Positions 1-19,339 of a stretch of 45,103 nt of DNA are shown here, one piece after another. The notes under the pieces were generated by a model. The model worked only from the letters and a program-made list of their open reading frames with translations. It was not told the DNA's origin and did not search any database. Origin of the DNA: a virus (taxonomy: Duplodnaviria; Heunggongvirae; Uroviricota; Caudoviricetes); IMG/VR virus record IMGVR_UViG_2734482790_000002; one strand, 5' to 3'. A program made the translations under genes and the position numbers. How positions within the stretch are numbered: position 1 is the first letter of the stretch; each line of letters begins with the position of its first letter.

Positions 1-468
1 ATGCCAGATCAAAAAGAAAGTGAGAACACCAAACTCACTTGTGAAGAACAAAAGGATAATGAACTGGTTTCTCGAGTAATCGAAAATCCAGAGGTTTTAA
101 ACAGGGTTTTGGATAGTCCGCAGGTGCGGGCTATTGTTTGCCAGCATTTTCAGGGGCCTGTTCCGCCACCTTCAATGCTTAAAAAGTATGATCAACTGGT
201 GCCTGGGCTTGCAAATCGACTTGTTGAGTTGACCGAAAAAGAGCAGGCTCATCGCCATAAAACAGTGGCTGATAGCATTGATATTGCCAGAGATGGTCAA
301 ACAAAGGCTTTTTGGTTGGCAATATTGATCATCTTAGCTGCCACTGTCTTTGGCGTCATGGGGGAGACAGTTCTTGCCGGAACTCTCGTTTCAATAGATC
401 TTGTTGCATTGGTTACGGCATTTATTGTTGGAAAACATTATTCTAAGCAGGAACCTGATCAAGATTAG
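1..468 (+). CDS. hypothetical protein with two C-terminal hydrophobic helices; prophage-border or host-flank gene; ORF begins at the window edge so the 5' end may be incomplete
   Basis: 155-aa ORF; hydrophobic segments AFWLAILIILAATVFGVMG and LAGTLVSIDLVALVTAFIVG; followed by an intrinsic terminator; no family recognised with certainty. Confidence 0.45.
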   Translation: MPDQKESENTKLTCEEQKDNELVSRVIENPEVLNRVLDSPQVRAIVCQHFQGPVPPPSMLKKYDQLVPGLANRLVELTEKEQAHRHKTVADSIDIARDGQTKAFWLAILIILAATVFGVMGETVLAGTLVSIDLVALVTAFIVGKHYSKQEPDQD

Positions 469-544: not shown

Positions 545-1663
545 TCAAACAACCAATTTAACCCATTCCTGACCACGAGTATCGTTATAACGATCGGTGG
601 TTGCCTGGACTTTATGTCCCAGTAATGTTTTTGTATCAATACCCTGCGCGCGGTACAGTCGTTCTGACAGGGAGCGTTGTTCATGAAATGTTGGCGGAGT
701 TTTTCCTGCTGGTGGAGTTATCCCAGCCAGATCCCGTGCTTTGGCAAAGTAGTCGCTCAGGTTGTCTTTACTCATCGGCTTTGGTTGTTTCTGGTGCCGA
801 CTATGGATTAGATATGGACTTAATATTCTGTCTCGGCACCCATCAATAACTTCTTTTAACGTTATCCCAATGGCATCACAGCGTAGTGTAAGCGGTAACG
901 CCAGACGCATTCCGGTTTTTCCCTGGGTGATATGCAAGTGTTCGTTCCACACATCTGAAAAACGCATGTGGCAAATGTCATCACGGCGCTGACCAGTAAC
1001 AAGCGCAAGAAGCATTGCGTTACGGATAAAGTGTTTTTCAGGCGTTGCGTTGTAAATTTTTTGCCAGTCTTCCAGGGTGAGCCTGGCTCTAGTTACTTTA
1101 GGGATCGGTTTACGGGTAGCCTCCGGAGGATTCCATCCAGGAGGAACTTCCCCTGCATGCTGTGCTTCTTTATAAATATCAACCCATAATCCACGATTTA
1201 CTCTCGCTGTGCTGACCATGTCTTTATCCAGCCACTCATCCAGTATTAATGCAAAGTCTCTTACTTCCAGTTCTTTCAATGGGTGGTTTCCCAGACGGGA
1301 AACCAGGTATGCAGCCATTCGGGCTTTTTCTTTGTGAGTTGTAGCTGCAATATCTCCATTTTTCAGTCGCGTGTCCTGTATTTTCAGATATCGATCAACC
1401 CATGCCTTTAATCTGATACCCCGACGCTTTGTTGCTGACGGACTTTCATCAATTTTGCGCATGAAATATTCAGCCTCTGCTGCAGCTATTCGCTGATTGG
1501 CTGTGGAAGCGATTTTTTCTGCCTTACCTTTGTCTGTTCCGAGCCCGTGAAATTTTCCAGTCACAGGGTTTTTATACTGGTAGTAAACTCTGCCAGTTCT
1601 GCGATCAAATTTTTCGTAAAGTCCGGCTACGTCAGTGCTGTTTTTTCGTGGCCTCGGTGACAT
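545..1663 (-). CDS. int: phage integrase, tyrosine recombinase (lambda Int family)
   Basis: 372 aa; C-terminal catalytic region with HEQRS and LGHK...DRY motifs typical of lambda-type integrases; overlaps the upstream excisionase as in lambda. Confidence 0.9.
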   Translation of the reverse strand: MSPRPRKNSTDVAGLYEKFDRRTGRVYYQYKNPVTGKFHGLGTDKGKAEKIASTANQRIAAAEAEYFMRKIDESPSATKRRGIRLKAWVDRYLKIQDTRLKNGDIAATTHKEKARMAAYLVSRLGNHPLKELEVRDFALILDEWLDKDMVSTARVNRGLWVDIYKEAQHAGEVPPGWNPPEATRKPIPKVTRARLTLEDWQKIYNATPEKHFIRNAMLLALVTGQRRDDICHMRFSDVWNEHLHITQGKTGMRLALPLTLRCDAIGITLKEVIDGCRDRILSPYLIHSRHQKQPKPMSKDNLSDYFAKARDLAGITPPAGKTPPTFHEQRSLSERLYRAQGIDTKTLLGHKVQATTDRYNDTRGQEWVKLVV

Positions 1664-1910
1664 GAGTTAAAATCTCCTTCAGTGCATCATCATCGCCAGT
1701 ATGAATTTCCGGCGCAATTCCTGTTTCACCAGGTCCAACAAATACTGCTCGGCGATCTATCAGCCAACGCCCACGAATTTTTTGTGGTCTTGGAACGATG
1801 TATCCTAGTTTTCCGTATTTCACTAGGGTAGTGTTTGTTATTGGGAGACTGAACCGTTTTGGCTTCCACTCATCGAGCGTTATCAGGTACTGTTCGCTCA
1901 TGGCTATCAC
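1632..1910 (-). CDS. xis: excisionase-like protein (start may be the internal Met at 1901)
   Basis: small basic protein directly upstream of and overlapping int; ITLDEW motif resembles lambda Xis LTLQEW. Confidence 0.65.
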   Translation of the reverse strand: MIAMSEQYLITLDEWKPKRFSLPITNTTLVKYGKLGYIVPRPQKIRGRWLIDRRAVFVGPGETGIAPEIHTGDDDALKEILTHVTEATKKQH

Positions 1911-1962
1911 TCCGGAACGCGCCAGTTGCAGAATACCAACGACAACTGGCGACGGTTGAACA

Positions 1963-4434
1963 TTAAAAATCAGCCTGACTCGGGATCAGTTTTTGCCAGA
2001 TAGCTGAAACGTATTTTGCCTGGTAACGGGCGTCATCAAGTGCATTGTGGCGCTCACCTTCGAATGGAATATCCGTTCTGGCATCGAAGTCTATGGCTTT
2101 CCCCAGCTCAACGATTGTGCGTACATCGCGATCGTTGTAGTAACGCCACGGGCAGGGGATCCCCTGCCGTTCGTATGAACGGCGCAAAATCGTGTTGTCG
2201 AAGTTGGCTCCATTTCCCCAGACCTGAACAAAAAATTCACCGGAGTTTTCGTCGATAAATTCCCGCAATTGTAACAGTGCATCATCTAACGGGATTTCAT
2301 CGGTCATAATGGCAGATTGCGCTTCGCGTGATTGCTTAAGCCACCATTTAATGGTGTCCCGATCAATGACTCCGCCAGCAGTTTCCAGATCGATAGTCTT
2401 ACTAAATTCCGGTCCCATATCTCCGGTTTGCGGATCGAAAAATATTGCACCTATTGAGATAATCGGGGCATCAGGATTTTTTCCCATGGTTTCAAGGTCG
2501 ATCATTAGATGGTCACACGTCCTGCTGGTGGATGCGATAACGTGATGACCGTTCACCGTAATTAAGGGATCTGCCGTCTCGCCAGTTTCACTATCGCTGG
2601 CGTGATCCTGAGCGCTGCCAGCATTCTCCTTGTGTGGATGTTCAGCGCCTTCCATTTTCTCCGAATCGTCTTCCTGAACTTCAACCTGGTTCTTGTCATC
2701 GAATGTTTCCTGGTATGTTGCGTCGCCCATCACTGCACCACAATCAGGGCAGTTGCCGCCACCGCTTTGACCGCAGGCGGTGCAGATCTTTTCCGGTTCC
2801 TGTTGCACTACTGGTTCAGGTTGTTTCGTTTCTGGCTCGTTTTGTTGCGTATTTGGGCTGTTTTGTTCCGCTTTCTGGTCGTTCTGTTCCGTTTCTTGCT
2901 GGTTCTGGTTCACAGAATCGCGGGTTTCAATCCCCTTCACCCATTTCGGATCATTCGGATCGCTAATCCCTGCAACAAATTCACCACGTGATACTGCAAG
3001 CAGTTCATCGGCGTCAGGCTGGCTGATATTGGCTGCCTGCATAATTTTGTTTACTTCGTCAGCGGTAACTTTTACCGGCCCTGGTTGTGCGGTCGTGTCA
3101 GATGCACCAGTATTTTGTTGTGAACCTGAGTATGTACCGTTTTTGCGGGCGAAATATTCTTCTTTCGTGATTTCAGTAGCCCCGGCAGCCAGTGCCTTAT
3201 CCAGACCAGAAAGTTTGTTTGCGCGACCGTATTTTTCGCCATCCTTGTCGGTGAAGAGGAAGTAGAACGGCCCCTCACGCTCTACAGATGGTTCGACTTC
3301 CACTTTGCATTCGGTTTTTTCGTTGTCCGGAATTGCCGTTTCCACTGCATCAGTTTCTGGTACTGGCGACGAGAGAGTATCAGTTGCGCTCTGATTTCTT
3401 CCTTCATCTTCAAACACGCCCTTTGTAGTCAGGTATTCAGTAATGTATTTGTTCAGTGCTACTGGATCTTTGTGAATGTCGATCGGACGCTCACGGACAA
3501 GGCCAAAAATAGTCTGACGGTCGTAGCGAACGGCATCGGGTTGTTTGCGCATTGATGCGGAAATGCGCTTCCAGTCTTCGCGATCTTTGTCGATAACTTC
3601 ATTTTTTGCCCAGCGATGGATGCTGCCGTCAATGTTTCCGGCATTAATATCGCCAGGCCACAGAGCGTAGGCCAGTTCTTCATCCAGCGTTTTCCATGTC
3701 TGCTTGTATTCGCGATGAGTGGCAGCAATGACCGGGTTGATTTTTCCTGTTGAATTTTCAGTGTTCTGTTGATTGGCTCTGGCGCGGGCGAGATCAACAA
3801 CAGACGTGTATTTTCCGGTTTCCTTGCGTTCACCTTCGCGACGTTTTTTCCAGATGCGCATCTCTGCCTGAATTTCGGGCCATTTGGCACCAGGCTTACA
3901 TTTATGCTTAACCCACCCGATGGCATGCAGCTTAAGCTCCGGATACATGGCGTTAACTTCTGGCATTTTCATCAATGCTTCAACGATATGTCCGTCGAAT
4001 GTTGCCATGTCTTCCTGCAACAATTCCTGTGCGCTAATCACCATATCAACGGTGATGTTTTCACATGTGTCGAACTTAACCATGACAGCGTTCTGTACTT
4101 CAGGGGCCAGCTTGTCAAAAGTGACGTTCATCGGATCGGATTCAGTCTCAACCGGTACAAAGGAAGCAGACTCCTCATCCCAGCGGTTTTCCTGCATATA
4201 TTCAGCATCCCAGGAATCGAGGGCAGGGCGGGGTATACCGGGTTTATCCTCGCAAACAAGAAATTTATAAGCGCAGTCCTGAGCAGCCGGATAATGTTCC
4301 AGGAATTGCCAGTGAAATTTTGCGCGGGCGCGACGTTCATCACCGGCTTCAATGGCAGTGGCTACAGCGACTGCACCTTCTTCCTTTATTGCCTGTTCGT
4401 CCGGAATGGCGGCGCAAATAAAGACTTTACTCAT
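1963..4434 (-). CDS. large exonuclease with C-terminal DnaQ-like (DEDDh) 3'-5' exonuclease domain; exodeoxyribonuclease VIII-like prophage protein
   Basis: 823 aa; C-terminal MIDLETMG...NGANFD...HNALDDA motifs of DEDD exonucleases; acidic, low-complexity central region with a CTACGQSGGGNCPDCG zinc ribbon; sits at the exo position of the leftward early operon. Confidence 0.6.
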   Translation of the reverse strand: MSKVFICAAIPDEQAIKEEGAVAVATAIEAGDERRARAKFHWQFLEHYPAAQDCAYKFLVCEDKPGIPRPALDSWDAEYMQENRWDEESASFVPVETESDPMNVTFDKLAPEVQNAVMVKFDTCENITVDMVISAQELLQEDMATFDGHIVEALMKMPEVNAMYPELKLHAIGWVKHKCKPGAKWPEIQAEMRIWKKRREGERKETGKYTSVVDLARARANQQNTENSTGKINPVIAATHREYKQTWKTLDEELAYALWPGDINAGNIDGSIHRWAKNEVIDKDREDWKRISASMRKQPDAVRYDRQTIFGLVRERPIDIHKDPVALNKYITEYLTTKGVFEDEGRNQSATDTLSSPVPETDAVETAIPDNEKTECKVEVEPSVEREGPFYFLFTDKDGEKYGRANKLSGLDKALAAGATEITKEEYFARKNGTYSGSQQNTGASDTTAQPGPVKVTADEVNKIMQAANISQPDADELLAVSRGEFVAGISDPNDPKWVKGIETRDSVNQNQQETEQNDQKAEQNSPNTQQNEPETKQPEPVVQQEPEKICTACGQSGGGNCPDCGAVMGDATYQETFDDKNQVEVQEDDSEKMEGAEHPHKENAGSAQDHASDSETGETADPLITVNGHHVIASTSRTCDHLMIDLETMGKNPDAPIISIGAIFFDPQTGDMGPEFSKTIDLETAGGVIDRDTIKWWLKQSREAQSAIMTDEIPLDDALLQLREFIDENSGEFFVQVWGNGANFDNTILRRSYERQGIPCPWRYYNDRDVRTIVELGKAIDFDARTDIPFEGERHNALDDARYQAKYVSAIWQKLIPSQADF

Positions 4435-4526
4435 TTTGTTTTACCTCATTACAGATTTAAGGGTGAACAAATCCCTGCCATTGCTGGCATATAAAAATGA
4501 AACCGGATATTTATTACGGTGCTGGT

Positions 4527-4718
4527 TTAAAGCCCTGCCGGGACTTCGTTATTATCCATGCGAATAACTTTATCGACCGGATAACAGTTACCGGGAATTT
4601 TCTGTTCCGCTGCGGCAGCCATGCATTCTTTCATTGAGCCGTATACGCCAGTAACCATGTCAACCGGTTCACCGGAAACAAGAAAAACCGTCAGAACAAG
4701 TGCAAATGTGGTATTCAT
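4527..4718 (-). CDS. small secreted or membrane protein (63 aa from the internal Met)
   Basis: N-terminal signal-like segment MNTTFALVLTVFLVSG; its ATG overlaps the upstream stop as ATGA (translational coupling). Confidence 0.45.
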   Translation of the reverse strand: MNTTFALVLTVFLVSGEPVDMVTGVYGSMKECMAAAAEQKIPGNCYPVDKVIRMDNNEVPAGL

Positions 4719-4903
4719 TGCCAGTATCCTTTTTGAGTCGGACGTAAACGGGCCAGCATAGAAAGAATGCAAATTTGATTTAATAACTCCCGTTCGTGTT
4801 TTCTCTTATTAATGGCATCTTCAGTAAATACAGGGTTACTGATTCTGACACCAATTTCAAAACAACCTTCAGACGTATTAACGTTTGGTAATAACGTTTC
4901 CAT
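4715..4903 (-). CDS. small hypothetical protein (62 aa), first gene of the leftward early operon
   Basis: ORF coupled to the downstream small gene; central basic/amphipathic stretch KRKHERELLNQICILSML; function unknown. Confidence 0.4.
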   Translation of the reverse strand: METLLPNVNTSEGCFEIGVRISNPVFTEDAINKRKHERELLNQICILSMLARLRPTQKGYWQ

Positions 4904-4920
4904 TATCGCGTCCTCAACAA

Positions 4921-5080
4921 TGAATTTTGTGATGCGGTGCCTGGTGCCTCCAGGTGACGTTAACCAGTTAACAATTAACGCCGGATACAGGGAAACCCAT
5001 AAACACCCGATACGGGGGAACTAATCGCTTTTTAACTGTTCCGCGTGCGCTCAGCCGCATTCACCGCATCACAAAATTCA
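4921..5080. repeat. perfect 19-bp inverted repeat pair (tgaattttgtgatgcggtg / caccgcatcacaaaattca) flanking ~122 bp that carries three TTAAC motifs
   Basis: exact reverse complementarity between 4921-4939 and 5062-5080; internal gttaaccagttaacaattaacg. Confidence 0.8.
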
Positions 5081-5381
5081 CTTTAAAAAGGGCGGACATC
5101 AGCCAGCAATGAAACTGATGCCGCCAAAGGTACAAATCAACATGGAGTGTTGTAGCGGGGTTGTCACTCAGGCGTATGGTCAACCTGACAACCCGGTGCT
5201 ACCAGTGGGGGTAAGGATAACCCCGCCATACTTACCGCCGCGCCATTTCGCGGAGTGCCACAACCGGAAGCGCACGGTCGAAGATACCGGCGACACGCAA
5301 CAGAGGGAGAAATGACTTCGCCGTGCGCTTTCGTGTTGTGTGCCTGCTTTTAACCACGTCAGGCGAGGTGGTTCCTGTCAT

Positions 5382-5425
5382 TCCCCAACGACAAGAAATC
5401 TGTATAATCTGGATATCCCCAACGA
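5382..5425 (+). promoter_or_regulatory. candidate sigma70 promoter (perfect -10 TATAAT with TG just upstream) flanked by direct repeats tccccaacga
   Basis: tgTATAAT at about 5401-5408; 10-bp direct repeats at about 5382-5391 and 5416-5425; good SD (aaggaa) and ATG at 5440 follow; the -35 is weak. Confidence 0.5.
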
Positions 5426-5439
5426 TCCAAGGAAATCAT

Positions 5440-5586
5440 ATGACAGAGCAAAGAGCACAAGCAGGTGGTGGCAATTCGACACATAAAACAGTCTGGGATC
5501 ACATACCAGAGAAAAACATTCGACCAAAACCATCTCCAGCTCCTTCGGAGGAGAGGGGGAACAGCAACAACCAAACAAGCAGGTGA
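5440..5586 (+). CDS. small hypothetical protein (48 aa), first gene of a rightward cassette
   Basis: ATG preceded by aaggaa SD; its stop overlaps the SD of the next gene; no recognisable motif. Confidence 0.35.
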   Translation: MTEQRAQAGGGNSTHKTVWDHIPEKNIRPKPSPAPSEERGNSNNQTSR

Positions 5587-5592
5587 TGATGT

Positions 5593-6039
5593 ATGGACCG
5601 GGATGATATTCTTGACAGAATTTTATATGGCTATTTTCTTGAGCAACTATTTTCTGTAGCGACTGGTCGTCTCGATAAACTTCTCTCAGTGGTGAGTATT
5701 ATCCTCGGTTCATCTGTCATTGGCGGATTCATTCCGGAAATTTCTGGCGTTTTTATTGTTGTGATCGCAACCGTCCAAACGATTTATGGATTCGGACAAA
5801 AGTCAGGTAACGCCATGAGAAAATCCGCAGAATATTTGCAGCTTTTTGATGATGCAGAAAAATATTCTGATTCTGAATTGAAAATGCAGTTAAAAATTCT
5901 GGAAAAAACGGATGATCATATTTGGTCATCACTTAAAGATATTGCGATCTTAAAAACACAGATCAAAATAGGCGTTTCCATCGAACAACAAGAGAAGCTG
6001 CCCACAAAATCTAAATTGATGCGATTTCTTTGTGGTTAG
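5593..6039 (+). CDS. membrane protein with two adjacent TM helices and a ~80-aa C-terminal soluble tail; candidate superinfection-exclusion or abortive-infection effector
   Basis: 148 aa; SD aggtga 6 nt upstream; TM1 LLSVVSIILGSSVIGGFI and TM2 ISGVFIVVIATVQTIYGF; converges on the cI operon. Confidence 0.6.
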   Translation: MDRDDILDRILYGYFLEQLFSVATGRLDKLLSVVSIILGSSVIGGFIPEISGVFIVVIATVQTIYGFGQKSGNAMRKSAEYLQLFDDAEKYSDSELKMQLKILEKTDDHIWSSLKDIAILKTQIKIGVSIEQQEKLPTKSKLMRFLCG

Positions 6040-6092
6040 GAATATCCAGAATGTTAAAGAGCATGCCGGAGATTTATCCGTGTCCGGCGCAT

Positions 6093-6117
6093 GTTCTCCA
6101 CCTCACCCGTGGAGAAC
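6093..6117. terminator. hairpin between convergent genes (probable terminator of the rightward cassette)
   Basis: gttctccac-ctcaccc-gtggagaac, 9-bp stem; followed on the + strand by ttaatgattaatt (U-rich but interrupted). Confidence 0.5.
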
Positions 6118-6504
6118 TTAATGATTAATTGATATTTTATAGTTGGCTTCAACTTTCCCATCTGAAGTGGGATGCTTTAAATCACAGGAATTAATGTTGC
6201 ACTCAGTAAAATGGTTTTTAAGGGGTTCTATTCGAATCCCTTTCTTTTCCATCAACAAACCAAACCCCTTGTTAATGATATCCATTAATTCCAGGAAGTA
6301 TTTTTCAGAGGAATCATGCTTATCAGAGTGCTGCTTCTCTTCGTACAACCCGATAAAGGCACGGCGCACGTTACCGGATATATTATCTATGGTTTCTTTT
6401 TCTACGGTACTCAGGTCAAGAGTCGCCAATTGAGAACGAACTATATTCGCTGCCATTTCCTGGAAAGGTGTTGGTAAATCTTTAAATTCCATCGTTAATC
6501 TCAT
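6118..6504 (-). CDS. hypothetical protein (128 aa), second gene of the cassette downstream of cI (rexAB-equivalent position)
   Basis: ORF whose start overlaps the upstream stop by one base (TGATG); acidic, soluble, no TM segment and no motif I can name. Confidence 0.55.
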   Translation of the reverse strand: MRLTMEFKDLPTPFQEMAANIVRSQLATLDLSTVEKETIDNISGNVRRAFIGLYEEKQHSDKHDSSEKYFLELMDIINKGFGLLMEKKGIRIEPLKNHFTECNINSCDLKHPTSDGKVEANYKISINH

Positions 6505-6734
6505 CAGTCAGTATTTCTGGATAACCAGCGACGCGCGCCAGCTTCGGTTTTAAACGTTTTGCTTTTGGTATACGTCATCGCGGTGAACGTACCGTCCTGG
6601 TTGGGAAACACGCCACATACCAGAGATTCGCTGTTGCCAAGATCGATAGTATCCATGTTGACCTCATTTCCCCTTAACGCCGGGGTAGCGGAACAAAAAC
6701 CTGCTGCATAGTTAAAGTTGAACCCTGCCGTCAT
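6504..6734 (-). CDS. hypothetical small protein (76 aa; alternative start at 6656 gives 50 aa), first gene of the cassette downstream of cI
   Basis: ORF in the same orientation as cI; the internal Met at 6656 has a better SD (gagg); C-terminal KTFKTEAGARRWL resembles small antitoxin-like alpha/beta folds but I cannot verify this. Confidence 0.5.
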   Translation of the reverse strand: MTAGFNFNYAAGFCSATPALRGNEVNMDTIDLGNSESLVCGVFPNQDGTFTAMTYTKSKTFKTEAGARRWLSRNTD

Positions 6735-6832
6735 GTTCTTACGCCTCGGGCTGGCTACTTAACCCCTGACCACTGCCTGGTAACTCGAAGTATTGCCCTG
6801 CATTCTGTGGGGTGGGGTGAGGGAATGAATGA

Positions 6833-6861
6833 AGTTTAGAAAAATGAACTTTTCAGGTCAA
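6833..6861 (-). promoter_or_regulatory. candidate internal promoter for the cassette downstream of cI (by analogy with lambda pLIT)
   Basis: minus-strand TTGACC - 17 bp - TAAACT in the cI-to-cassette gap. Confidence 0.4.
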
Positions 6862-6945
6862 TGTTTTTTTATCAAAACATTTTAAGCAGGCAGCTGTTAA
6901 GCCATCACCACGATGGCATACAGTTAATCAAATAGATGAGGTTGG

Positions 6946-7584
6946 TTAAATATCTTGTTGAATTTTAAAGCATACGCCCAATATGCAAGATAGATCATCC
7001 AGCATAATTGAAGGGTAGCGAGGATTCGTGGGGACTAAAAGAATATCCGGCCCTTCTATCTCCAGTTTACGAATGACAGGTGTTGTGGTCCCTTTGGGTA
7101 AGGCAAGGACAATATTTCCTGGTTGTACGGTTCGATCGGGATCAACAAAAACTGTTGAACCATTTGGGATGGAAACTCCCCCACCAGATGTTGACATACT
7201 GTCACTCTCTAGAACAACTGCAAAGGTATTGGCCGGGATTTCTCCGACAAGCTGCACACAAGAGGTTATTGAGGAATTTTTCATATAATCACTCCAGCTT
7301 GCTGCCTGCTGAAGTGATAGTAGCGGAACCGTTTTTATCGGCGGTAAAGATAGATCAAGCGAATCACCTGTATTTAACTCTCCTCCATTAAGAAGCCAAT
7401 TTTCGTTTACTTTCAATATCTTTGCCAGTGAACTTATGTAACGCGAGGACGGCGCTCCTCCACCGTTCATCCATTGACTTACGGAGCCTTTTGATGCGCC
7501 AGTGGCATTGACAAGGTCTTTGCCTTTCAGGTTTAGCGCATGCATACGTTGGGTTATGCGTTCAGATATTGTTTGCTTGCTCAT
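6946..7584 (-). CDS. cI: CI-type prophage repressor (HTH-XRE N-terminal domain plus S24 LexA-like autopeptidase domain)
   Basis: 212 aa; N-terminal HTH (GASKGSVSQWMNG); C-terminal S24 domain with catalytic Ser (VLESDSM) and Lys (IRKLEIEG); divergent from cro. Confidence 0.9.
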   Translation of the reverse strand: MSKQTISERITQRMHALNLKGKDLVNATGASKGSVSQWMNGGGAPSSRYISSLAKILKVNENWLLNGGELNTGDSLDLSLPPIKTVPLLSLQQAASWSDYMKNSSITSCVQLVGEIPANTFAVVLESDSMSTSGGGVSIPNGSTVFVDPDRTVQPGNIVLALPKGTTTPVIRKLEIEGPDILLVPTNPRYPSIMLDDLSCILGVCFKIQQDI

Positions 7585-7646
7585 GTTTTGATTTTAAAAC
7601 ACAGATGGTTTTGTTTCTTGACTTTCTTTGGTTTTGATTATTAAAC
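7585..7646. promoter_or_regulatory. cI-cro intergenic operator/promoter region with two 16-bp direct repeats and a TTGACT -35-like hexamer
   Basis: gttttgattttaaaac (about 7585-7600) and gttttgattattaaac (about 7631-7646); TTGACT at about 7618-7623. Confidence 0.45.
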
Positions 7647-7675
7647 TTTTGGCGTTCAGTTTTATGGAGCGACTC

Positions 7676-7906
7676 ATGAAAAAATCAGAAGTATTAGGCT
7701 ATTTTGGCGGAGTTGTTAAAACAGCCGCAGCTCTAGGAACGTCAAAAACCACAGTCAGCATGTGGGGGGAAGAGGTTCCGTGGAAATGGGCGTTGCTAAT
7801 TCAGGCAGTCACTGCCGGGGCGCTCAAATATGAGTTACACATACCGACGGTTGTCATTCCCGGTTCTGATCATAATCCGCCTTCTAACCAAGGGGGGGAT
7901 TCATGA
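7676..7906 (+). CDS. cro: Cro-like small HTH regulator
   Basis: 76 aa from the Met with a ggag SD; HTH-like ALGTSKTTVSMWG; first gene of the rightward operon, divergent from cI. Confidence 0.7.
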   Translation: MKKSEVLGYFGGVVKTAAALGTSKTTVSMWGEEVPWKWALLIQAVTAGALKYELHIPTVVIPGSDHNPPSNQGGDS

Positions 7907-17135: not shown

Positions 17136-18182
17136 ATGGTTGATACTGTAAAAATATCCAGTTGTGAGTTAATCAACACCGATTGCCTGGAATTTATCCA
17201 GACCTTATCGGAAAACTCTGTCGATCTTATAGTCACAGACCCGCCATATTTTAAAGTGAAGCCCGAGGGCTGGGATAACCAGTGGAAGGGCGACGATGAT
17301 TACCTGAAATGGCTGGACCAGTGTCTGGCTCAGTTCTGGCGGGTACTGAAGCCTGCCGGAAGTCTTTACCTGTTTTGTGGTCATCGCCTGGCATCTGATA
17401 TCGAAATCATGATGCGTGAGCGCTTTAATGTGCTGAACCACATTATCTGGGCGAAGCCGTCCGGACGCTGGAACGGGTGCAACAAAGAAAGCCTGCGGGC
17501 GTATTTCCCGGCAACAGAGCGCATTCTGTTTGCCGAACATTATCAGGGGCCATACCAGCCAAAAAATGATGGCTATGCGGCAAAGGAGCGCGAGCTTAAA
17601 CAACACGTCATGGCCCCGCTGATTTCTTACTTCCGTGATGCGCGTGAATCACTGGGGATAACGTCCAAACAGATAGCGGAAGCCACCGGAAAGAAAAACA
17701 TGGTGTCGCACTGGTTTGGTACCTGTCAGTGGCAGTTACCGAACGAAGCTGATTACAGAAAACTGCAGGCGCTGTTCGCGTGTGTTGCAGAAGAAAAGCA
17801 CCAGCGTGGGGAGCTGGCAACGCCACACCAGCAACTGGTCAGCACATACAGTGAACTGAACCGGCAATATGCCAGTCTGCTTGAGGAATACAAATCTCTG
17901 CGGCGTTATTTTTCTGTATCGGCCGCCGTTCCTTATACGGACGTCTGGACGCATAAGCCCGTGCAGTATTATCCGGGTAAGCATCCCTGCGAAAAACCGG
18001 CGGATATGTTGCGTCAGATAATTTCTGCCAGCAGTCGTCCAGGCGATTTGGTCGCAGATTTTTTTATGGGGTCGGGGTCGACAATAAAAGCGGCACTGTC
18101 GCTGGGACGCAGGGCGATTGGCGTGGAACTGGAAGAGGAACGTTTTAATCAGACGGTCAGAGAAATAACGAAAGATTTTTAA
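17136..18182 (+). CDS. DNA methyltransferase (N6-adenine or N4-cytosine class), orphan
   Basis: 348 aa; motif IV DPPY near the N-terminus (SVDLIVTDPPY) and motif I (DFFMGSGST) near the C-terminus; no adjacent restriction endonuclease gene. Confidence 0.85.
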   Translation: MVDTVKISSCELINTDCLEFIQTLSENSVDLIVTDPPYFKVKPEGWDNQWKGDDDYLKWLDQCLAQFWRVLKPAGSLYLFCGHRLASDIEIMMRERFNVLNHIIWAKPSGRWNGCNKESLRAYFPATERILFAEHYQGPYQPKNDGYAAKERELKQHVMAPLISYFRDARESLGITSKQIAEATGKKNMVSHWFGTCQWQLPNEADYRKLQALFACVAEEKHQRGELATPHQQLVSTYSELNRQYASLLEEYKSLRRYFSVSAAVPYTDVWTHKPVQYYPGKHPCEKPADMLRQIISASSRPGDLVADFFMGSGSTIKAALSLGRRAIGVELEEERFNQTVREITKDF

Positions 18183-18399
18183 TTCAGTGATGATATAAGT
18201 TGTATATTTCTGATACAGATGTATACACATATTTAAAACTGAACACCAAATATATTTTTGATGTCTGAAAAACTGTCGTTAGTATTCTGACTGGTCCGGA
18301 AGACGGTTATTTTTGTGTTCACAGGGGCGTTACTATCGTCTGAAGGACCAGTGCTGGCTTTCCTGGTAATTCGTGTGATTCCGGAAGCCAGTACAGTAT

Positions 18400-18476
18400 G
18401 CGGGTATCGTATAATGGCCATTACCTCAGCTTTCCAGGCTGATGATGTGGGTTCGATTCCCGCCACCCGCTCTCCA
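18400..18476 (+). tRNA. tRNA-Gly(UCC)-like gene, possibly degenerate at the 3' end
   Basis: cloverleaf: acceptor gcgggta, D-arm gtat-aatggcca-ttac, anticodon arm tcagc-ttTCCag-gctga, T-arm gtggg-ttcgatt-cccgc; near-identical to E. coli glyT as I recall it; A7:C66 mismatch and 3' tail tCTCCA rather than CCA. Confidence 0.6.
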
Positions 18477-18908
18477 GTAAAACTGATGAGTCATAGCTTT
18501 ATTATCAGCACTGGCGAATTTTCGTGAAGAACAGACCTGGCAGGTGGATTTGTTGTTTTTCATTCTGTAGACCTGACCGCCTACAGTTTCAGTGCTTTTT
18601 TTTGTAGTCATCCCTGCATGTTGCAGGGATGAGGTGATACCAGAATGCGTCGTTGTCTGTTTCCGGGCCTACGATTTGCCAGTTTGCACAGCAGGCTGAC
18701 GGCGCATTCTTATAACATCTATACAAGTAAACTCTGTTTCATCATTACATTGCGTTAGCCCGCCTTATGTGTGGGCATTTTTTTTACCTATGCATATGGC
18801 TCGCTGCGGCGGGCCTTTTTCATATCCGCGCCACGCCTGGCGCACATCACATCAGATAGCGCCACACAAAAGGTATCTGCGGGTGCCTTTGACGGGGTGT
18901 TTTTTTAC

Positions 18909-18932
18909 GGGCCGACAGAGGCCCTTTTTTAT
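18909..18932 (+). terminator. Rho-independent terminator just upstream of the lysis cassette
   Basis: gggcc-gacaga-ggccc hairpin followed by a T-run. Confidence 0.6.
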
Positions 18933-18949
18933 TTACAGGAGAAAAACGT

Positions 18950-19339
18950 ATGTCTGAACCCTTGTCCGGTTCCGGCACGGCTGCGGCGCTCGGCGGGGCG
19001 ACGGTATTCGGGCTGTTTACCGGGACGGATTTCGGGATTGTGTTTGGCGCGTTTGCCGGGGCGTTGTTTGTGGCCACGATGCCACAGGTGATTTCTGTCT
19101 GGCGTGTGGCGGCGCATTTTCTGGTGTCGTTCATTGTTGGCGTGCTGGGGGCGGATGTCCTTGCGTCCTGGCTGGTCGAAAAATTGAATCTCCACAGCAC
19201 ATCTCTCGACGCGCTTTGTGCGGTACTGGTATCGGTGGTGTCGGTGAAGATTCTCTCATTCATCCACCAGCAGGATATCGCATCGCTGGTATCCGGGCTG
19301 TTCTCCCGTCTGCGGGGTGGAGGCGGTAATGTTAAGTAA
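18950..19339 (+). CDS. holin-like membrane protein
   Basis: 129 aa; SD aggag; multiple TM segments; first gene of the lysis cassette. Confidence 0.5.
   Translation: MSEPLSGSGTAAALGGATVFGLFTGTDFGIVFGAFAGALFVATMPQVISVWRVAAHFLVSFIVGVLGADVLASWLVEKLNLHSTSLDALCAVLVSVVSVKILSFIHQQDIASLVSGLFSRLRGGGGNVK

Follow-up and report, generated by a model that had tools for sequence, protein, structure and literature searches.

An intact ydfE-type prophage gene codes for a RecE-like protein with a predicted DexA-family 3'-5' exonuclease head and no annealase partner

The window analysed here, that is, the whole 45,103-nucleotide stretch of viral DNA, carries in its early leftward operon an exonuclease gene with no annealing partner. 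This gene is an intact version of ydfE, a Qin-type prophage gene common in E. coli lambdoid prophages, and its 823-aa product is not half of a two-component exonuclease/annealase recombinase: as compared with the viral systems Red and RecET, no annealase gene adjoins it and its head is of the DEDDh, not the PD-(D/E)XK, type. The arrangement is real but not new, because a "Tritos-type" nuclease-only recombination module was described in 2025 (Zheng, Casjens, Davidson, Amundsen & Smith, Genome Res 2025; PMC12315714), which presents Tritos as a nuclease-only, Chi-rich lambdoid Rec module without annealase or RecBCD inhibitor. The window is another member of this class, with an early-left nuclease lacking an annealase or SSB, abundant Chi sites on the top strand and homology to the prototype nuclease. 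The features on which the analysis rests are listed in Table 1.

Table 1. Positions of the exonuclease gene, its domains and the surrounding features in the window
Feature	Position	Strand	Evidence
Lambda-type integrase, end of leftward operon	545..1663	-	PF09003, PF00589
Excisionase, directly downstream of exonuclease gene	1632..1910	-	PHROG 629, E 5e-26; Pfam Exc
RecE-like/DEDDh exonuclease gene, full-length form of K-12 ydfE pseudogene	1963..4434	-	ORF; PHROG 2082 "exonuclease" end to end, 823/823
Predicted DEDDh 3'-5' exonuclease head, aa 642-813 (Rv2179c-like/T4 DexA family)	1996..2511	-	PF16473, E 8e-68; dN/dS 0.13
Acidic low-complexity linker, aa 571-630	2545..2724	-	Net charge down to -9 per 30 aa; dN/dS 0.72, near neutral
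RecE-like middle segment, aa 475-624, with DPNDPKWVKG motif	2563..3012	-	Alignment to RecE
Zinc ribbon CTAC-x7-CPDC (C551, C554, C562, C565)	2740..2784	-	Sequence; kept in RecE as CNACGQTGGDNCPDCG
Small beta-hairpin/helix domain, aa 388-432 (GPFYF...GRANK motif)	3139..3273	-	AF2 pLDDT about 80; dN/dS 0.04
Conserved helical core, aa 245-340, inside the aa 215-380 segment common with RecE aa 237-384; probably Pfam YdfE_C	3415..3702	-	Profile match to RecE and 60 representatives; AF2 pLDDT about 88; dN/dS 0.07
N-terminal module, aa 1-204 (Pfam YdfE_N in close homologues): alpha/beta domain aa 1-100, helical domain aa 105-204	3823..4434	-	AF2 model m58d65ea11d05, pLDDT about 90; dN/dS 0.11
YdfD-like (DUF1482) small membrane/lysis-family protein	4527..4718	-	PF07358, E 8e-23; annotated DUF1482 family protein or lysis protein YdfD
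dicB, cell-division inhibitor	4715..4903	-	PF05358, E 4e-36; NCBIfam NF049927, 126.6 bits (cut-off 100)
DicF-like sRNA upstream of dicB	5090..5138	-	Rfam RF00039, 38.7 bits (gathering score 48), E 3e-6
cI	6946-7584		Other limit of leftward operon
Chi sites (GCTGGTGG), 10 in span 708..19271	708, 2524, 8163, 11365, 12432, 13787, 17013 (+); 14193, 14245, 19264 (-)	+/-	

The protein is a mosaic in which aa 1-256 match K-12 YdfE, two segments (about 215-380 and 475-626) match non-catalytic RecE, and the head resembles T4 DexA. An earlier note on this DNA had described a large DnaQ-type exonuclease of 823 aa with a C-terminal DEDDh domain, a zinc ribbon and a long acidic linker, and each of these parts is borne out, by the reading frame at 1963-4434 (-) with PF16473 at aa 642-813, by the four cysteines in a CxxC-x7-CxxC arrangement, and by the strong negative charge of aa 571-630. 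The two small coupled genes that it placed before the exonuclease are dicB, whose stop overlaps the start of the ydfD-like gene by 4 nt (4715-4718), and the ydfD-like gene itself, the product of which has a hydrophobic N-terminus. Their families, assigned with Pfam as DicB and YdfD-like lysis protein, answer in the negative the suggestion that one of them might bind ssDNA. The sRNA further upstream sits where dicF does in K-12 Qin and phage Tritos and is accepted, because of this synteny and a Rfam match below the gathering score, only as DicF-like.

Proteins 86-97% identical to aa 1-437 carry precomputed matches to YdfE_N (PF27430) and YdfE_C (PF27432); a homologue search with aa 1-437 gives near-identical E. 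coli fragments only, and a profile of distant members was used for diversity. The aa 388-432 domain is present in many family members and falls in a gap of the alignment to K-12 RecE, from which it is absent. For the N-terminal domains and the shared core, no solved structural relative was found. The folded domains are under purifying selection, with dN/dS of 0.04-0.13 as compared with 0.72-0.88 in the linkers, and this argues against the view that the gene is a decaying RecET-type remnant that lost recT, gained an unrelated nuclease and has no current function. One- or two-gene Rec modules are called "somewhat suspect" by Zheng et al. (PMC12315714), many database copies are fragmentary, and in K-12 ydfE is a pseudogene that IS2 interrupts. 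However, the catalytic residues are all intact, at least 80% of the query DNA occurs in 3481 of 5426 complete E. coli genomes, the gene is also found in viable, plaque-forming phages (mEp460, Tritos), and DEDDh heads are attached to two different N-terminal types, which implies repeated retention; decay is therefore considered extremely improbable.

A closer inspection of the head showed that the PF16473 (Rv2179c-like DEDDh) match reaches 228 bits (cut-off 27; E 8e-68) and covers model positions 2 to 177 of 177. All five DEDDh catalytic residues are present, namely D646, E648, D746 and H796-x4-D801; those of DexA are D7/E9, D119, H186 and D191 (PMC12153337). The H-x4-D motif was read by eye directly from the sequence because the MAFFT alignment misplaced this last motif. 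The only sequence matches of the head in PDB are 8KEL and 8KEN (E 1.5e-6), the entries of the T4 DexA structure paper. As judged from its sequence, the head is a catalytically intact DEDDh exonuclease of the T4 DexA family, with a predicted 3'-5' polarity. Since PF16473 is named after an exoribonuclease ("3'-5' exoribonuclease Rv2179c-like"), an RNA substrate is possible, and the protein may act mainly as a 3'-5' exonuclease that processes or degrades transcripts, sRNAs such as DicF, with which it shares an operon, or RNA primers during lytic growth. Some RefSeq copies are also labelled "3'-5' exoribonuclease", and two RefSeq E. coli genomes with 100% identical DNA are annotated "3'-5' exonuclease". 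Exoribonuclease names, however, spread by homology, the only solved structures detectable by sequence are those of DexA, a DNA exonuclease, and the scaffold is common with DNA recombination enzymes, so that we regard a mainly RNA-directed role as improbable.

The 823-aa protein was also considered as a candidate for EcD of the HREX paper and rejected, because the EcD cloning primers encode a MIDTET... start and a ...TIPETYD end and thus a different protein.

An anti-phage defence or exclusion function, in which the nuclease would attack T-even phages by degrading their 5hmC-modified DNA, in the manner of the "HREX" protein EcD, or trim RNA-phage genomes in that of the DEDDh "TONDO" exonucleases, appears unlikely, if somewhat less so than an RNase role. 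In its favour, the E. coli DexA homologue EcD cuts 5hmC DNA and, with plasmid expression, gives protection from T4, Escherichia accounts for 38% of the "bacterial" homologues of DexA (PMC12153337), and prophage DEDDh exonucleases with auxiliary domains act against RNA phages (PMC13344964). But EcD is a stand-alone protein with other termini, and the HREX/EcD type is defined by a stand-alone domain that keeps W152 and D169, whereas the domain is here fused to 640 N-terminal residues and both 5hmC determinants are lost, W152 being replaced by Y766 and the D169 loop being absent. The TONDO set was taken from ISG20-like matches shorter than 500 aa (PMC13344964). The gene lies deep in a repressor-controlled pL operon beside xis and int, not in a moron position expressed in the lysogen, and defence leaves unexplained why one and the same scaffold bears this head in some proteins and the RecE nuclease or a Rad52-like annealase in others.

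No annealase was found among all plausible early ORFs by PHROG and Pfam scans, and no SSB family appears in any such scan of the window. When 830 ORFs of 30 aa or more, taken from all six frames, were scanned with three divergent RecT proteins, Bet, Erf, a Rad52-like profile, Gam, Abc1/2, NinB, lambda Exo and the RecE nuclease as seeds, none of these was detected (best E 0.18). The RecBCD inhibitors Gam, Abc1 and Abc2 are absent from the 45-kb window and no PHROG match points to an anti-RecBCD gene, GamL and MuGam lying outside the seed set. RecE aa 595-866 used as query gave nothing in the window, though relatives with that head were detected. The absence of a Bet/RecT/Erf-type protein and the departure from the exo-bet or recE-recT pairing, both put forward in the earlier note, thus hold, with xis in place of an annealase gene after the nuclease; neither of the two places where an annealing function might still have lain yielded one, as the modelled N-terminal 460 aa (AF2) contain no annealase fold and the six-frame scan of the window uncovered no annealing gene outside the ORFs first called.

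A partner could still have been missed, either as a novel fold among uncharacterised early genes or as a RecT or Bet acting in trans from the host or a co-resident prophage. No function is known for several early ORFs (PHROGs 630, 1621, 4659, 660, 6315 and 6937), and E. coli genomes contain a median of two copies of the region, often together with other prophages. Against this, none of the annealase families searched for occurs in the window, the uncharacterised ORFs match DUF1627, DUF977 or nothing and none adjoins the nuclease, and the leftward operon leaves no room between cI and int for an additional annealase-sized gene. In relatives with a RecE head the annealase is always the next gene, whereas here the excisionase gene occupies the slot held by recT in Rac. 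We consider a missed partner very improbable.

The link between head and partner is seen across 167 related loci, which were gathered with two narrow alignments. RecT was called with several seeds and a Pfam check, as the K-12 RecT seed alone misses divergent recT genes beside RecE-type heads. A recT gene lies directly downstream of the RecE-type nuclease head in 72/72 cases, and no RecT, Bet or Erf is detectable with the DEDDh head in 84/84, although these counts overstate the number of independent events because the loci are phylogenetically clustered. In this sample the presence of RecT can thus be predicted from the head type with no exception and regardless of the N-terminal module, so that the DEDDh proteins offer a clean natural example of a nuclease in the Rec slot that works without an annealase. 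Other enterobacteria carry a third head, modelled as a Rad52-fold annealase; its carriers may be the "RecE-2" proteins, to which Zheng et al. ascribe no nuclease domain and an unknown role (PMC12315714).

Chi sites number 10 in the window as compared with 1.8 +/- 1.5 in shuffled sequences, none of 100 shuffles reaching 10, but ten in 45 kb is near the average density of the E. coli chromosome, and the enrichment is therefore clear only against shuffles and lambda-type phages. None occurs from 19.3 to 45.1 kb, and the assignment to top and bottom strands, with the top-strand sites toward the right end of the packaged genome, presupposes that the order of genes in the window is lambda-like, as it appears to be. 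Taken together, the missing annealase, the lack of a detectable RecBCD inhibitor and the many Chi sites suggest that the phage most likely depends on host RecBCD-Chi-RecA recombination. The most likely function, which we hold with about even confidence, is that of a stand-alone exonuclease working on DNA 3' ends in support of the host's RecBCD/RecA-dependent recombination. The enzyme, which is produced from the early-leftward (pL) operon along with DicF, DicB, YdfD, Xis and Int, is modular, with YdfE_N and the RecE-shared helical core, disordered acidic linkers with the zinc ribbon, and the DEDDh head. It would need no partner to process DNA 3' ends, for example by trimming 3' tails or flaps, and the trimmed ends could become RecBCD substrates or usable primers; the RecE-like module might provide a scaffold or direct the enzyme to its target. 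Against this reading, Zheng et al. state that homologous recombination is usually inhibited by DnaQ-like 3'-5' nucleases (PMC12315714).

A bolder and rather doubtful extension is that the YdfE/RecE N-terminal module is a general adaptor bringing interchangeable DNA-end heads (a 5'-3' PD-(D/E)XK nuclease, a 3'-5' DEDDh nuclease, a Rad52-fold annealase and at least one other) to one target, for which DNA ends, RecBCD, SSB or the replisome are candidates. The DEDDh version would then condition ends for RecBCD-Chi, as a phage accessory to the host pathway and not its replacement. If true, this would at last assign a role to the N-terminal two thirds of RecE, a protein whose N-terminal region is described as "of unknown function" (PMC11611040). 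The strong constraint on the N-terminal domains and shared core bears in any case on the RecE N-terminus, which enhances linear-linear recombination. The value of the finding is mainly confirmatory, since it adds one more member to a described class; of possible interest for phage recombination and recombineering are the link between head type and RecT, the relatives with a Rad52-fold head and the constrained N-terminal domains. The module is present in 4789 of 5426 complete E. coli genomes, the gene thus being carried by most of them; no study of the 823-aa protein was found in the literature on RecE/DEDDh prophage, ydfE/dicB/ydfD or Rv2179c-like phage topics.

Among known systems, lambda Red (Exo/Bet/Gam) and other "SynExo" recombinases share the early-left operon position beside int and xis and a nuclease presumably acting on DNA ends, but here there is no annealase and no Gam, and the nuclease is a DEDDh enzyme of predicted 3'-5' polarity, not a PD-(D/E)XK 5'-3' toroid. 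RecE (exonuclease VIII) of Rac is alike in its helical core (RecE aa 237-384, by profile), its middle segment (RecE aa 455-590), which holds a zinc ribbon and an acidic linker, and its place before xis and int in the leftward operon. BLASTP aligns aa 279-626 with RecE 294-592 (E 3e-60), the identity being 39% over the aligned segment overall and about 80% by eye over aa 470-626, and the middle segment is the only stretch that resembles K-12 recE at the DNA level (75.8%). In contrast to RecE, the protein lacks the PF06630 N-terminus and the PD-(D/E)XK nuclease domain (PF12684-type), its head is of predicted opposite polarity and no recT follows; against the RecE equivalog NF007259 it scores 272.7 bits over aa 238-626 only, the cut-off being 1269 and K-12 RecE scoring 1830.

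T4 DexA and EcD belong to the same DEDDh subfamily (PF16473), and the five catalytic residues align, as does the DexA tetramer-interface residue D90 with D718. Both are stand-alone proteins of about 190-230 aa, whereas the domain is here the C-terminal head of a much longer chain; its identity to DexA is 33% (MAFFT), or about 28% over the first two thirds (tblastn), and several DexA loops, including the 5hmC-recognition loop, are missing. The K-12 Qin dicBF operon (dicF-dicB-ydfD-ydfE) has the same gene order as the window, and K-12 YdfE is 96% identical to aa 1-256; the K-12 gene, however, has lost everything after aa 256, including the nuclease, which the window gene retains. The closest counterpart is Tritos, for which Zheng et al. 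give the module without protein domain dissection or mechanism and Chi counts of 21/6 to 7/2 (top/bottom) for the type, against 7/3 in the window (PMC12315714). Tritos has the same int-xis-exonuclease-ydfD-dicB-DicF-...-cI order and DNA that is 91.4% identical over 100% of the query, and the two differ in their immunity and replication regions and otherwise in nothing essential.

The window holds a lambdoid prophage of E. coli, with the exonuclease gene in the pL operon beside xis and int. The earlier note described its 823-aa product as an exonuclease with a C-terminal DEDDh domain, a zinc ribbon and an acidic linker, and this description holds. The DEDDh domain (aa 642-813; Pfam PF16473 'Rv2179c-like', E 8e-68) has all five catalytic residues (D646, E648, D746 and H796-x4-D801), the zinc ribbon is of the form CxxC-x7-CxxC (C551/C554/C562/C565), and the low-complexity linkers are strongly acidic.

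Sequence comparison shows a mosaic protein. Its residues 1-256 share 96% identity with ydfE of the K-12 Qin prophage, a pseudogene cut by IS2. Residues 279-626 match aa 294-592 of Rac RecE, in its non-catalytic part (E 3e-60, 39% identity overall), with ~80% identity by eye over aa 470-626, zinc ribbon included. DNA-level similarity to recE is limited to aa 475-624 (75.8%), and the RecE equivalog model scores far below its cut-off (272.7 versus 1269 bits); unlike RecE, the protein contains neither the RecE N-terminal Pfam domain nor the PD-(D/E)XK nuclease. Among solved structures, the head matches by sequence only 8KEL/8KEN (E 1.5e-6), which come from the structural study of T4 DexA. The new Pfam families YdfE_N (PF27430) and YdfE_C (PF27432) are assigned in close homologues; the Pfam set searched for the window does not include them. 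A structure model of aa 1-460, built on 60 aligned sequences, has a mean pLDDT of 75 (~80-93 in the folded domains). It starts with an alpha/beta domain (aa 1-100), followed by two helical parts, a domain at aa 105-204 and a core at aa 245-340, and then by a small beta-hairpin/helix domain (aa 388-432).

Against 16 distinct 823-codon homologues, dN/dS is 0.04-0.13 across the folded domains (0.13 for the DEDDh head) and 0.72-0.88 in both linkers, the pattern expected of a maintained multidomain protein rather than a decaying remnant. That the gene is vestigial is contradicted by this pattern and is hardly credible. What these data show is a DEDDh head of the DexA family, intact in its catalytic residues, that has been maintained on a scaffold of RecE type.

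Features of the exonuclease locus and of other parts of the window
Feature	Coordinates	Strand	Remarks
DUF2335 membrane-protein gene	1-468	+	PHROG 3996, 'moron / host takeover'; outside int
int	545-1663	-	
xis	1632-1910	-	
Exonuclease ORF	1963-4434	-	823 codons
YdfD-like ORF	4527-4718/4772	-	63-81 codons; DUF1482/YdfD-like
dicB ORF	4715-4903	-	62 codons; PF05358 E 4e-36; NCBIfam 126.6 bits (cut-off 100)
STnc100 match	4871-5092	-	37 bits, sub-threshold; directly downstream of DicF-like sRNA
DicF-like sRNA	5090-5138	-	just upstream of dicB; 38.7 bits, below Rfam gathering score 48; E 3e-6
Terminator-like hairpin	5122-5095	-	at DicF-like sRNA
LexA-like CI repressor	6946-7584		
99-aa ORF	12590-12889	-	PHROG 5232 'toxin' (E 2e-43); within rightward nin region
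tRNA gene	18400-18471	+	between methyltransferase gene and lysis genes
Rfam RF02111 'IS009'	44865-45063	+	full-length, 223.7 bits; in or beside tail-fibre region, window end

The two small coupled genes reported upstream, one of them with a signal peptide, are dicB and a ydfD-like gene; they overlap by 4 nt, and the N-terminus of the YdfD-like protein is indeed hydrophobic. The DicF-like sRNA lies where DicF does in Qin and in phage Tritos, and the leftward operon agrees with the K-12 Qin order dicA-ydfA-ydfB-ydfC-dicF-dicB-ydfD-ydfE-intQ. Beyond CI, the plus strand carries cro, a cII/YdaT-like gene, replication genes, RusA and Q. The equivalent of the tRNA gene in an identical region of NZ_AP024126.1 is annotated as tRNA-Gly. 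The DUF2335 gene adjoins the potC-side junction in strain NS-NP030; it could be cargo that the prophage carries beyond its att site, or else belong to a separate islet.

The reported lack of a Bet/RecT/Erf-type annealing protein was confirmed by two kinds of search. Every plausible early ORF was scanned with PHROG and Pfam; the products recognised were the repressor, Cro, a CII-like protein, a replication initiator, DUF1627, a DUF977/Ren-like protein, two HNH nucleases (one DUF968), RusA, Q and a methyltransferase, with no annealase among them. A six-frame scan of the whole window (830 ORFs read from stop to stop, each 30 aa or longer), with three divergent RecT proteins, lambda Bet, P22 Erf, a Rad52-like head profile, Gam, Abc1, Abc2, NinB, lambda Exo and the RecE nuclease domain as queries, returned nothing better than E 0.18. 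A partner annealase that is present but escaped these searches is very unlikely.

Across the family, the N-terminal module is uncommon, matched by only 192 representatives (50% identity level) among 1.8 billion proteins; long representatives share a core (aa 215-380 here, aa 237-384 in RecE) joined to either of two N-termini, YdfE-type or RecE-type, and to several alternative C-terminal heads. Related loci (n = 167, of which 7 came from genomes representing their species and 160 from IMG/VR) were sorted by head type and searched for annealase genes. A RecT-family gene lies directly downstream in 72 of 72 loci with a RecE-type PD-(D/E)XK head, while RecT, Bet and Erf are absent from 84 of 84 DEDDh-head loci (up to 10 kb either side). 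The loci cluster phylogenetically, with 75 and 69 different protein sequences, and the counts are not those of independent events. RecT typically begins 4 nt past the stop of the scaffold gene, and three examples match Pfam RecT at E 2e-38 to 2e-41. Presence of RecT tracks the head, not the N-terminus: seven loci joining a RecE-type N-terminus to a DEDDh head lack RecT and run directly into xis and then int, and two joining a YdfE-type N-terminus to the RecE nuclease have it. Gam, Abc, lambda Exo and NinB were found in none of the 167 loci. The scaffold gene has a YdfD-like gene before it at 79 of 84 DEDDh-head and 68 of 72 RecE-head loci; DicB is present at 74 of 84 of the former but only 1 of 72 of the latter.

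A third head was found in homologues of 730-800 aa from Enterobacter, Kosakonia, Yersinia, Salmonella and Pectobacterium, most of which have a C-terminal region without Pfam match bearing the motif KKSLTDAIKKALSxLGFSADVWLGLYD. PHROG labels this region 'exonuclease', and sequence and profile searches against the PDB and P22 Erf gave no match. In Salmonella and Kosakonia the gene occupies the same slot, with a Sipho_Gp157 protein gene directly after it and no nuclease gene called nearby. One scaffold accordingly bears a 5'-3' nuclease, a predicted 3'-5' nuclease or a head modelled as a Rad52-fold annealase. The Enterobacter protein P0126 (702 aa) has a fourth head (C-terminal ~220 aa, PHROG 26058, no Pfam match). 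The most useful by-products of the analysis, in our view, are that head type and RecT are strictly linked and that a head modelled as Rad52-fold occurs on the same scaffold.

Ten Chi sites (GCTGGTGG; 7 on the plus/top strand, 3 on the minus) occur in the window, all within 708-19271, the int-to-lysis half that forms the right-end half of the packaged genome; the structural-gene half (19.3-45.1 kb) contains none. One (2524-2531, +) lies within the exonuclease gene on the opposite strand. Shuffled sequences gave 1.8 ± 1.5 sites, and 0 of 100 shuffles reached 10. Ten sites per 45 kb is about the E. coli chromosomal average, the density being above average only in the early region.

Neither an annealase nor Gam or Abc was found in the window. 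The reading we favour is that the exonuclease acts alone on 3' ends of DNA, while the phage grows lytically or is induced, and that the recombination which the phage needs goes through host RecBCD-Chi-RecA; we give this general statement an even chance. E. coli 3' ssDNA exonucleases help turn tailed ends into RecBCD substrates, and DexA has a role in T4 double-strand-break repair. These precedents suggest a specific version, in which 3' tails or flaps would be trimmed to give RecBCD entry sites or usable primers, with the N-terminal module as a targeting or assembly part; such an end-blunting step is more tentative. A defence or exclusion nuclease, like HREX or the TONDO exonucleases that act against RNA phages, is unlikely, given where the gene lies in the operon and given that the DexA 5hmC determinants are lost (Y766 replaces W152, and there is no D169 loop); moreover, EcD, the E. 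coli HREX protein and a DexA homologue, is a different protein that stands alone. Action as an RNA exonuclease is less likely still.

The 2941-bp region is matched in 4789 of 5426 complete E. coli genomes (about 88%), with at least 80% query coverage in 3481 of them and 100% identity in two cattle isolates. Given this frequency, the 'bacterial DexA homologues' of the HREX paper, 38% of which are from Escherichia (PMC12153337), may include prophage genes like this one; if so, their reading as host defence genes would weaken. RefSeq labels the products 'exonuclease' or '3'-5' exonuclease', DUF1482/YdfD and DicB. Sequenced phages that carry the region include mEp460 (94.9%), Tritos (91.4%), HannyBb, PhiR42_1 and the PPompW group. 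As annotated, mEp460 and Tritos share the int-xis-exonuclease-ydfD-dicB layout and have no recombinase.

The earlier note's interpretation of the locus as a departure from the exo-bet or recE-recT pairing is supported. The finding is not novel, since the arrangement is widespread, annotated and already described as a class. The survey of Rec modules in 325 lambdoid phages by Zheng, Casjens, Davidson, Amundsen and Smith (Genome Res 2025; PMC12315714) reports 'RecE-2' proteins without a nuclease domain and of unknown role, and phages lacking anti-RecBCD function that are Chi-rich, for which reliance on host RecBCD was proposed. It also makes Tritos the prototype of a functional type (4 phages, Chi counts 21/6 to 7/2) having a nuclease without annealase, SSB or anti-RecBCD gene, and it is with this Tritos class that the window agrees in having a nuclease, no match to an annealase, Gam or Abc, and many Chi sites.
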